Shown here: positions 42,189-46,978 of the stretch, one piece after another
Layout: the number at the start of each line of letters is the position of its first letter
How positions within the stretch are numbered: the first letter of the stretch is position 1
Virus record (IMG/VR): IMGVR_UViG_2873737359_000001
Span: 1-64,000 of that record
Source of the DNA: a virus
Taxonomy: Duplodnaviria; Caudoviricetes
Reading direction: 5' to 3' (one strand)
DNA length: 64,000 nt
Translations under genes and position numbers: made by a program
Notes under the pieces: generated by a model
Databases searched by the model: none
The model's input: only the letters and a program-made list of their open reading frames with translations
What the model was told of the DNA's origin: nothing

Positions 42189-42596
42189 TTAATCGTTTTT
42201 GATCTTGACCTTACAACCAAATTTCTCTTCGACTTCATCCATCGTAACTTCTTTTACGGTATCATCATAGATAAGCTCAAATTCTGGAAACACATCATCC
42301 ATAAAATTTTCGTCACCCCCAATAGGCATAGAACCGACTCTACGAACATCGTTAATTCTCCAAACCTTGATAATGCGATCATTTTCTTTATAACTAAATA
42401 CACAAAACCGCATATTCCCAGTTAAGCATCTGAATGTTCTGAATTTATTGATGCTTCTGTGACTTACTTTGCTGTAATACCATTTAATGAGATCTCCACG
42501 ATCAGTGTTCTTTAAAACAATACCGTAACTTCCTTTTGTAGAAAGAACAATATCGCCTGTCCGAAGATCATTCAAACACATTGTTTTCATAATCAT
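42189..42596 (-). CDS. Hypothetical phage protein
   Basis: DLRTGDIV start, KEVTM.EVE.KFG.KVKI tail. Confidence 0.75.
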   Translation of the reverse strand: MIMKTMCLNDLRTGDIVLSTKGSYGIVLKNTDRGDLIKWYYSKVSHRSINKFRTFRCLTGNMRFCVFSYKENDRIIKVWRINDVRRVGSMPIGGDENFMDDVFPEFELIYDDTVKEVTMDEVEEKFGCKVKIKND

Positions 42597-42639
42597 GCTC
42601 CTTATACATTTACTTTATTTTCTATTGTAGCGCTACAAA

Positions 42640-42712
42640 TTGGCATAGACGGAATCGAACCGTCATTATATTGATCCATGAGTCAATTATTCTACCATTG
42701 AACTATATGCCA
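42640..42712 (-). tRNA. Atypical tRNA with 8-nt anticodon loop (CUCAUGGA)
   Basis: TGGCATA/TATGCCA acceptor, ATTGA/TCAAT stem, GACGG-TTCGATT-CCGTC T arm. Confidence 0.75.
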
Positions 42713-42767
42713 AACCATTACATATACAAATGAGTGCCTAATAGAGCTTATGCAAAATATCAGGCAA

Positions 42768-42841
42768 TGGAAATTCTGGGACTCGAACCCAGGACCGACC
42801 GGTTATGAGCCGGTTGCTCTAACCAACTGAGCTAAATTTCC
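42768..42841 (-). tRNA. tRNA(CAT), probably Ile2
   Basis: GGAAATTTAGCTCAGTTGGTTAGAGC...CTCATAA; body resembles Firmicutes tRNA-Ile2. Confidence 0.9.
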
Positions 42842-42911
42842 ATGCTCTGTATATGACACACTACTATGATATATCATATACAGGAAAACACTTATTATAA
42901 ATGCAGCCTAC

Positions 42912-43342
42912 GTTTATAGTTACCACAATCCTATCATTGCTAACAACACTGATCGGTTCGACCTCATATACTACCTAATTTCACCTCACTATAAACACGT
43001 TTATTCTTTCTATTCTTTTATAACTACATTAACAGCCGTCGCTGTTTTGATCCCCACTCACTTCCTCATCCTCGTTATAAGAATATAAGCTATAAAATCA
43101 ATAAGCTGCGTAATTGATATTTCCTTATATTCCAGATACGACTACACCAAACCATATTGTTTGCCTCACCATACTTTCTCACCCTCACCTCGTCATGTAT
43201 CAAGAATACTTCAGAAATATTTTCCTTTTATATGACTACACCAAACCATATTGTTTGCCTCACCATACTACCTCACCCTCGTCATATAAAAGATCATCTA
43301 TATAAATGTATGTGCTACCAAACCCTCTACCAACCTCGCACA
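42912..43342 (-). ncRNA. Array of five structured units (stem-GAGG...GUA-stem)
   Basis: Five different outer stems with the same flanking motif; units 43135-43201 and 43225-43292 share a ~36-nt exact repeat. Confidence 0.65.
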
Positions 43343-43523
43343 GAGCCATACCCAAAGTACAGGCTGTTCCCAACTTAGTTTCATCTCATTGTAAAATTGT
43401 AATAAAATATATTACATTTGTCTGAGACTATAATGATATGCTGATCACTGCTATCTTGATCTCAAGTAGGTTAACCTTCAGATCTAAATTAATCCGTGGC
43501 CTTTAGATATCTAAAGATCTGAA

Positions 43524-43605
43524 TACGGATAATGGGACTTGAACCCATATGAGTTTCCTCCGGAGAGTTTGAGTCTCCTGCGTCTGCCTATTTCGCCATA
43601 TCCGC
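43524..43605 (-). tRNA. tRNA-Leu(CAA)
   Basis: Class II cloverleaf, GGAGA-CTCAAAC-TCTCC, A73. Confidence 0.9.
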
Positions 43606-44356: not shown

Positions 44357-44357
44357 A

Positions 44358-44440
44358 CTAGGGTGGTGGGATTCGAACCCACACGGAAATCTCCAATAGA
44401 GTCAAAGTCTATTATGTCTATCCAATTCCATCACACCCCA
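44358..44440 (-). tRNA. tRNA-Gln(TTG) with long variable arm
   Basis: ATAGA-CTTTGAC-TCTAT, variable arm TGGAGATTTCCG, U1-A72, G73. Confidence 0.8.
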
Positions 44441-44443
44441 ATG

Positions 44444-44824
44444 ATTATCCACCATTTACCAGCCTTGCAGATCACTTATGGTCAAATACAACTATACCAA
44501 TAACATTTGCCAAGGATTTGATAAAATTTTATTCTTTATTATTTACTCTTTTAACTTTGATCAAAAATAAACTTTGAATTTTAAGCTTTATTACTTGACC
44601 TTTACAACTTTAAGCTTTACAGTGCATTAAGTAATATTATTTATCCATAATATGTATTATTTATAATATATTCGAATTAAAAGTTCGACCATTATTTAAA
44701 TTTTCTACCACTGTAGACCTTTCGATTTTAGAGTAGAGAGCTTCTTTTTAGCTTTATATGAGACTATGCTCTCCTGAAAGTCTAATAAGTTGTAATTTAA
44801 AGTTTTCAGTAAACAATGGATAAT
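44444..44824 (-). ncRNA. ~380-nt structured RNA candidate with heptamer-periodic AAAG tract
   Basis: Terminal ATTATCCA/TGGATAAT helix, several nested helices, no ORF. Confidence 0.65.
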
Positions 44825-46709: not shown

Positions 46710-46740
46710 GTTTCTTCTCCTTTATTTTTCATTATATAAA

Positions 46741-46811
46741 CGGCCATGGAAGGATTCGAACCTTCTCCACGATAATCAAAGTATCGTGTGCTGCCATTAC
46801 ACCACAAGGCT
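46741..46811 (-). tRNA. tRNA-Gln(TTG), imperfect acceptor stem
   Basis: CGATA-CTTTGAT-TATCG, GAAGG-TTCGAAT-CCTTC; two acceptor mismatches. Confidence 0.75.
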
Positions 46812-46978
46812 GCATTTATTATCAAATTTATTATTGATAGTTTCAAGATATTTTTTTTGTTACCTACAAGATATTTCTATCTCATAGGTAACATTTTTAA
46901 TTTTGTATGTTTATACAAAATTTATTATTGATAGTTTCGAGACATTTTAAAAATTGCCTCTCGCTTGACTGTATATGT

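Follow-up and report, generated by a model that had tools for sequence, protein, structure and literature searches.

The analysed stretch of viral DNA (the window, 64,000 nucleotides) corresponds to C1:287511-351510 of a bacterial assembly of 3.7 Mb with 43.6% GC. The C1 block at about 290-460 kb had a GC content of 31-36%, carried 17 tRNA genes, and encoded a DnaB-like helicase, a Sak4-like ATPase, HNH endonucleases, and a PTH2-family protein. This block was interpreted as an integrated prophage of very large size (roughly 170 kb), with a mis-join as the alternative. An RNA island was found on the minus strand of the window, in which tRNA-Gln, RAGATH-27, a long-arm tRNA-Gln, an HNH endonuclease gene, and tRNA-Leu(CAA) were followed, in this order, by a non-coding interval of about 680 nt, tRNA-Met, a tRNA whose anticodon loop has 8 nt, and a 135-aa ORF. 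The non-coding interval holds a tandem array of RNA units, and the features around it were as follows:

43524..43605, minus strand: tRNA-Leu(CAA), the upstream boundary of the array island.
43440..43523, minus strand: X element, directly after tRNA-Leu and always upstream of the array.
42767..42842, minus strand: tRNA-Met(CAU), the downstream boundary of the array island.
42189..42596, minus strand: 135-aa ORF (P0001 family), the nearest ORF downstream of the tRNA/RNA island in all lineages found to carry an array.

Other members of the island were recorded as well. RAGATH-27 at 44735-44820 (minus strand) was a full-length match of 92.9 bits and was also present in L004 (related contigs are given by L numbers); it is followed at about 44520-44640, on the same strand, by an A-rich tract in which the word AAAG recurs and which shows no complementarity to the GAGG units described below. 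The tRNA-Gln(UUG) at 44357-44441 (minus strand) measures 85 nt, which is long enough for a class II-like variable arm, and a normal 73-nt tRNA-Gln(UUG) lies at 46740-46812. The stems of the tRNA at 42639-42713 (minus strand) are intact, and its anticodon loop, CUCAUGGA, has 8 nt. This tRNA is conserved in L002, L003, and L192, and the tRNA at this position in the L004 lineage has an odd loop too (ARAGORN anticodon 'agcg'). Downstream of tRNA-Met, several lineages carry a conserved non-coding stretch of about 250 nt (L004 5600-5960; L190 ~2100-2310; L193; L199 3150-3430; L204 3150-3350) that is absent from the window's lineage. It contains words such as GAGAAAAUGUAGGGAAUUGAGCGG and AAAGAACACAUAAUCCUG and, at its end, a T arm and the 3' half of an acceptor, both tRNA-like; it may be another ncRNA or a tRNA that bears a large insertion.

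The X element is a separate conserved RNA-like element in which a covarying helix encloses the conserved CUAAAGGCCACGG, with AGGUUAACCU after it. Its helix occurred as UUCAGAUCU/AGAUCUGAA, UUCAGGCUAC/GUAGCUUGAA, and UCAGG/CCUGA, and its core reads CU(G/A)AAGGCCA(A/C)GG, then AGGUUA(n)ACCU. Besides the window, it was located in L004 (4935-5030) and in L005 (5053-5130, after tRNA-Met). The element had no match in Rfam. It sits at a position similar to that of a theta ribozyme, but it starts with U and could not be threaded by hand onto an HDV-like fold, and this assignment was not supported.

The 135-aa ORF belongs to a family with the invariant C-terminus KEVTMDEVE(E/R)KFGCKVKI. It had no match in Pfam or PHROG, its AF2 model (pLDDT 46) was unusable, and in the Atlas it retrieved viral hypothetical proteins only. 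When the neighbour protein was compared with genome contigs, one distant match was obtained, in a MAG labelled 'uncultured Clostridia bacterium'. The product is a candidate partner protein of the units only by position, and its co-occurrence with the arrays is inseparable from shared ancestry.

Within 42910-43343, the minus (tRNA) strand carries stem-closed units in which the first stem strand is followed by GAGG and the closing strand is preceded by GUA. The original prediction had placed five such units on the tRNA strand between two tRNAs; reading the sequence located all five there, and the flanking genes are indeed the tRNA-Leu(CAA) and tRNA-Met listed above. The inner hairpins it named, CAAAC/GTTTG and AACAGC/GCTGTT, were also present. 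The number needs a correction, in that four are good units and the first is an atypical hairpin whose orthologues are without GAGG/GUA. In the list below, P1 is the closing stem, P2 is the inner hairpin, and R2 is the covariance model described later.

43311..43342, minus strand: unit 1, a short hairpin UGUGC/GCACA whose loop starts with GAGG and ends with GGUA; atypical member.
43224..43293, minus strand: unit 2, type A; R2 76 bits.
43281-43293 with 43224-43236, minus strand: P1 of unit 2, 13 bp.
43258-43280, minus strand: GAGG-rich, C-free strand of unit 2.
43253-43257 with 43242-43246, minus strand: P2 of unit 2, CAAAC/GUUUG.
43237-43241, minus strand: GUGUA of unit 2.
43135..43201, minus strand: unit 3, type A, P1 GAU(AC)AUGAC/GUCGUAUC; R2 65.5 bits.
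43081..43134, minus strand: stem-closed spacer element without GAGG/GUA, GAAUAUAAG/CUUAUAUUC plus the inner hairpin AUCAAU/AUUGAU.
43018..43080, minus strand: unit 4, type A, P1 UUAUAAC/GUUAUAA, strand GAGGAUGAGGAAGUGAGUGGGGAUCAA; R2 41 bits.
43041-43046 with 43031-43036, minus strand: P2 of unit 4, AACAGC/GCUGUU, with the 3' junction AAUGUA.
42910..42998, minus strand: unit 5, type B, P1 of 9-11 bp, then GAGGUGA; R2 19 bits.

Units 2 and 3 have a sequence core of 39 nt common to these two only. In unit 3, the interior holds three further GAGG or GAG motifs, then P2 (CAAAC/GUUUG) and GUGUA, and its P1 contains a C.A mismatch or a 2-nt bulge; a variant in L003 has a contiguous 7-bp P1 including one U.G pair. 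Unit 5 has a longer interior with an extended hairpin and the 3' junction GUGGUA. Its orthologues in L004, L029, L193, L199, and L184 show changes in P1 and have the long inner hairpin in common. Type B units, unit 5 among them, are the last before tRNA-Met and follow the plan of the other units, with a longer P2 and a GGUA junction.

Unit 1 is the weaker member because its positional orthologues in L004, L029, and L190 have UGG-rich loops from which GAGG/GUA is absent. These orthologous hairpins keep a covarying stem of 4-5 bp (GUGU/ACAC, GCGU/AUGC). Unit 1 is thus related to the other units but distinct from them, a hairpin of a different type that lies next to them. A sixth element, at 43081-43134 between units 3 and 4, appears from its sequence and MFE fold to have the two-helix plan and no G-rich strand; it was found only in the window and in the near-identical L192. 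The conserved word CATTTATATAGATG precedes unit 2, and its interpretation as a repeated phage promoter was ruled out, as no such repetition occurs within the window. No terminator tails were seen after the stems of the array.

The consensus plan of the units is P1, (G/A)AGG, a strand of 21-38 nt, P2, (G/A)UGUA, and P1'. P1 and P2 may have any sequence, whereas the junction beside P1 is fixed, with (G/A)AGG on one strand and (U/G)GUA on the other. This consensus is unusually clear. The 5' strand consists of 48% G, 29% A, and 6% C, and the few C residues of each unit are located in P2. Among the representative units, GA precedes 38 of the 63 GG tracts, and GAGG occurs one to three times per unit (two or three times in 14 of 16); the last (G)AGG usually lies 0-8 nt from P2. 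A second 5' strand was noticed in units 2 and 3 (43138-43293, minus strand), where GUAUGGU, which also has GAGG after it, is able to pair with the P1 3' strand. This pairing would make either a nested mini-unit or an alternative conformer with GAGG directly opposite GUGUA, and the alternative strand was seen solely in the window's lineage.

Homologues were sought with two neighbouring proteins (135 aa and 213 aa) and with the conserved X element after tRNA-Leu. An early, loose X-element pattern had returned 120+ chance loci, which were reused as a negative control. The related contigs retrieved were 80-250 kb long and came from IMG/VR and human-gut metagenomes. Homologous arrays of one to five tandem copies were found on the tRNA strand of the tRNA-Leu(CAA)-to-tRNA-Met spacer in at least six lineages:

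Array lineage: window, L002, L173, L174, L181, L191, L192.
Array lineage: L004, L184, L199.
Array lineage: L029, L193.
Array lineage: L190.
Array lineage: L005, L165.
Array lineage: L203, L204, L207, L211, L214, L205.

In a more distant group (L136, L137, L158), only one unit is present, located after tRNA-Ala and upstream of an ORF. When the array was compared by BLAST with GenBank phages (50,697 records), only the tRNAs were matched.

The units were structurally unalignable by MAFFT, and a covariance model was instead built from two sequences and rebuilt from its own matches to give R2. True units in most of the related loci scored 19-77 bits with R2, and those in the more distant L199-L227 loci scored 13.8-27 bits, against a best score of 15.6 bits in 837 kb of unrelated viral DNA. 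The L203/L204 units, at only 18-19 bits, are near this background maximum and were accepted on descriptor evidence.

Among phages whose neighbouring proteins are 87-97% identical, the array differs by whole modules. One different unit takes the place of units 4 and 5 in L002, L174, and L191; unit 2 of L173 and L174 keeps P1 and has a different interior and P2; and L181 carries a hybrid of units 2 and 3. Such turnover of whole modules argues for independent modules and against one large folded RNA.

A mechanical descriptor (stem of at least 5 bp with G.U allowed, GAGG, 15-90 nt, GTA, and the complementary stem) gave matches that clustered in 42910-43343, with three weak matches elsewhere, having stems of 5-8 bp (128 kb, both strands). 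A stringent version (stem of at least 7 bp and at least four GG tracts), run on the whole 3.7-Mb genome, or 7.4 Mb of strand, gave 26 scattered matches in the genome versus three within the 430-nt array. No further true units were found in the prophage region of about 180 kb, and none elsewhere in the prophage or the 3.7-Mb host genome. The second tRNA cluster of the block, at C1:392.7-399.4 kb, was without GAGG units. R2 had no match in 150 other genomes of the host family, and none at E<0.1 outside the tRNA island of four whole related phage records. The folding of the region as a whole was not unusually stable (z = -1.35); the signal lies in the pattern rather than in bulk fold stability.

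Covariation, which the original prediction had proposed for these units and which one window alone is insufficient to demonstrate, was shown with the homologues: both the closing stem P1 and the inner hairpin P2 covary. When 24 units (22 of them distinct) were aligned by fitting to the CM, each of the eight modelled P1 pairs showed changes on both sides and 93.6% of the P1 cells were paired, versus 28-47% in slid controls, with none of 500 shuffles reaching the observed score; these counts lean towards structure, as the alignment is fitted to the model. The 28 distinct type A units extracted with the descriptor have 17 distinct 5' strands of P1 and 17 variants of the P2 helix, some of the latter differing by a single base. 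With G.U allowed, P2 was not significant per unit because the sequences are G/U-rich. A P2 restricted to Watson-Crick pairs and ending just before (N)UGUA gave a combined shuffle p of ~6e-7 over 12 distinct helices. Compensatory changes were seen between L005 (AUUGUAUA/UAUACAAU) and L165 (AUUGUGUG/CAUACAAU), between L204 (GUCAGC/GCUGAC) and L203 (GUCAGU/ACUGAC), and also between L190 and L204, and three G.U/G-C switches separate L136 from L158.

The strand of the structure was assessed through its wobble pairs. Allowing G.U on the tRNA strand lengthened 11 of 17 stems (81 to 156 bp in total), whereas allowing A.C, the equivalent of G.U on the opposite strand, lengthened one of 17, in a test that is somewhat biased since the descriptor itself admitted G.U. 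Judged from the sequences, G.U pairs appear to fit the tRNA strand only. The data strongly suggest that the array is a real, selected family of RNA structures.

The region 42843-43523 matched no Rfam 15 family at the gathering threshold, nor at E≤10, and this check covered GOLLD, ROOL, Y RNA, and type III antitoxins, the families raised in the original prediction. Units of L004, L005, L190, and L204, searched at E≤1, returned only a chance-level match to the C/D-box sR5 (21.7 bits vs. a 40-bit cutoff, E 0.49). No description of the GAGG-junction family was found in Rfam or in the searchable literature, the tables of PMC10690425 being outside this comparison. That paper catalogues 10,006 candidate structured RNAs of viruses, taken mostly from IMG/VR, and resembles the present case in its IMG/VR phage contigs, its human fecal microbiome material, and its covariation evidence; its candidates differ in carrying no names. 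The array is apparently an undescribed RNA family of a familiar kind, the orphan structured RNAs of phage tRNA islands.

Several known systems share parts of this organization. Species 1 and 2 of T4, GOLLD, and ROOL are likewise ncRNAs in or beside phage tRNA genes, on the tRNA strand, and like the array they are presumably matured from a common precursor. GOLLD and ROOL are single large RNAs, whereas the array consists of short modular repeats in variable number, and the Rfam models of both gave no match to it at E≤10. ToxI-type antitoxin arrays are also made of tandem short RNA units, which in ToxI are processed from one transcript, but ToxI repeats are near-identical and lie beside the gene of a toxin endoribonuclease, whereas the array units differ in sequence and keep the fold. 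A type III TA antitoxin was rejected, as the repeats are non-identical and the neighbours are tRNAs, an HNH endonuclease, and the 135-aa ORF, with no adjacent toxin gene. The unit sequences differ and no cas-like genes are among the neighbours, in agreement with the earlier view that the array is not CRISPR-like.

The sponge sRNAs CsrB and RsmX-Y-Z, on which the working model below is based, also carry many short purine motifs on a hairpin scaffold, and genes of the rsmX-type can occur in tandem. They differ from the array in two respects: their motif is GGA in hairpin loops, whereas that of the array is GAGG in a bulged strand, and they have their own promoters and terminators, whereas the array units lie inside a tRNA cluster. 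GGA is missing from several units, with none in the 5' strands of units 2 and 3. The units do not fit a sponge binding CsrA/RsmA, as the recurrent motif of the unpaired strand is GAGG and not GGA. The theta (minimal HDV-like) ribozymes share the niche of the array, gut Caudoviricetes beside tRNA-Leu or tRNA-Met (PMC10879173), but the array has no nested double pseudoknot and its units are nearly C-free. An HDV-like or theta ribozyme was rejected, as there was no match to the HDV clan and the C-poor units do not abut a tRNA.

The junction next to P1 was compared with ribosomal RNA. A GAG after one helix strand and a GUA before the other are the arrangement of the bacterial 5S loop E/sarcin-ricin (S-turn) submotif, in which sheared G.A, reverse-Hoogsteen A.U, and G.G pairs can adjoin the helix. 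The likeness to loop E that had been pointed out earlier holds in the strand arrangement, in which GAG/GUA abuts P1 as in the bacterial motif. The loop E sequence was present in 28 of 28 type A units, by construction of the descriptor ((G/A)AGG...UGUA), and R2, which is independent, recovers the type A units of the descriptor. Type B and C units, read by hand, end in GGUA. The first G of the junction is replaced by A only (AAGG in L029, L193, and L181), and A is isosteric with G at that position of loop E. The array also departs from 5S loop E, having one half-motif rather than a symmetric 7x7 loop and an asymmetric junction with a purine strand of 21-38 nt opposite 5 nt. Rfam gave no evidence of homology of the units to 5S rRNA. 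The assignment of the GAG/GUA junction to loop E is putative and is based on sequence and strand arrangement.

The best explanation of these observations as a whole, to which we give a probability of about 0.35, is that the units are modular small RNAs of about 60-100 nt that display GAGG in trans to a partner; the display or sponge mechanism taken by itself is equally tentative. GAG and GUA would form a loop-E-type non-canonical stack on P1, with a sheared G.A, a reverse-Hoogsteen A.U, and a G.G pair, and P2 would stack on this junction. The purine strand would bulge out unpaired, because C, with which it could pair, is nearly absent from a unit. The units would be transcribed together with the tRNAs and then released, with P1 protecting them as stable RNAs. 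By presenting many GAGG motifs on a rigid scaffold, they would titrate or recruit a partner in trans, either CCUC in the anti-Shine-Dalgarno tail of 16S rRNA or a protein that binds GAGG; a protein partner is as possible as the 30S subunit.

The end of the host 16S rRNA is GGATCACCTCCTTTCT, a tail that contains CCUCC. It thus carries the CCUC to which GAGG is complementary, and binding to the 30S subunit would be possible. The complementarity originally proposed was that of GAGGTGA to the anti-SD; its GAGG part (4 nt) is conserved, whereas GAGGUGA as a whole occurs in a minority of units. Ribosome binding by the units may be possible and would be weakly specified, because only the 4-nt GAGG is conserved. 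Phage genes themselves use SD sequences of the AGGAG type, so a global anti-SD sponge would hurt the phage too. The sponge model alone also leaves unexplained the invariant UGUA and the P2 that abuts it. A more specific form, in which the units are a new class of trans-acting phage RNA that displays several SD cores on a loop-E-anchored scaffold and binds the anti-SD tail of the host 30S subunit, with a new self-cleaving ribozyme as the second possibility, is unlikely. In such a case, the units would come from the operon of the phage's own tRNAs and would take over or buffer translation initiation during infection.

An unlikely competitor is that the units have no excised function and punctuate the tRNA precursor in cis, as barriers to or entry sites for RNase III, Y, or J, the hairpins separating or stabilizing the flanking tRNAs. 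The location of the array inside a co-oriented tRNA cluster agrees with this, as do P1 helices of 6-14 bp, which resemble nuclease substrates or barriers, and the precedent of STAB-SD, SD-like sequences near RNA ends that stabilize transcripts in Firmicutes. However, the other inter-tRNA spacers of the array phages are without units, while up to five crowd this one spacer, and in L136-type phages the single unit lies before an ORF and not between tRNAs. A cleavage site, moreover, needs no conserved GAGG strand, P2, or invariant UGUA.

A further reading, which we consider improbable, is that GAGG, (G)AGG, and GUGUA make up the catalytic core, between P1 and P2, of a new small self-cleaving ribozyme that cuts the polycistronic tRNA/ncRNA transcript. 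The approximately 13 conserved nucleotides are similar in number to the hammerhead core, and RAGATH-27, which as a motif occurs near twister and hammerhead genes, lies at a distance of 1.4 kb. The tRNA islands of gut phages also house theta/HDV-like ribozymes, which adjoin tRNA-Met, tRNA-Leu, and suppressor tRNAs (PMC10879173). Yet the strand between the conserved blocks (~21-38 nt) has no fixed spacing, which is unusual for a catalytic core, and the units have no pseudoknot partner and almost no C. No Rfam ribozyme model matched at E≤10, and no conserved cleavage-site nucleotide was seen flanking P1.

It is more improbable still that the units are ligand or ion aptamers built, like Spinach or Mango, on a two-tier G-quadruplex of four GG tracts closed by P1. 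At least four GG tracts are present in 12 of the 16 representative 5' strands, some of which read GGUUGGUUGGUAGG (L002 4330-4399), but this is the number expected from 48% G (shuffle P 0.22-0.92 in every unit). The G-quadruplex fails at this point, as the GG tracts are no more than composition gives. Only two or three tracts occur in L190c, L190b, and unit 4, one is lost in L181, and the conserved feature is GAGG, not G runs; tandem copies before a tRNA also offer an aptamer no obvious expression platform.

There is very little to commend the reading of the units as tiny protein genes, with GAGG as the Shine-Dalgarno sequence of an ORF of 8-15 codons, such as MVRQTIWFGVVI in unit 2. In units 2 and 3 and their close relatives, an ATG does follow GAGG after 4-10 nt, opening 12-15 codons in a frame that is kept across one 3-nt indel. 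Such ORFs are absent from L004a, L005a, L136, and L158, the peptides of other lineages are unrelated, and it is base pairing, with its G.U pairs and compensatory changes, that is under selection. Small protein genes were ruled out, the ORFs being confined to the window's lineage and not conserved. Least probable of all is a DNA-level element (such as a site of replication or recombination, or arrayed protein-binding sites), for although the region is non-coding and repeated and has HNH endonuclease genes nearby, structure is conserved where sequence is not, G.U is tolerated on one strand only, and the orientation is always that of the tRNAs.

Large gut phages pack tRNA islands with ncRNAs, almost none of which, to our knowledge, have known roles. 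The present family is small and modular, is defined by covariation, and has an invariant core of GAGG and UGUA; its small size and short core make it easy to synthesize and test. The array is a clean marker for one clade of uncultivated human-gut phages of 80-250 kb. One member of the clade is integrated in an assembled bacterial genome, and could be induced for study if the source is a cultured isolate. If the units self-cleave, they would be a new ribozyme class. If they bind the 30S subunit or a host or phage protein, they would represent an RNA-based layer in the phage's manipulation of translation or defence.
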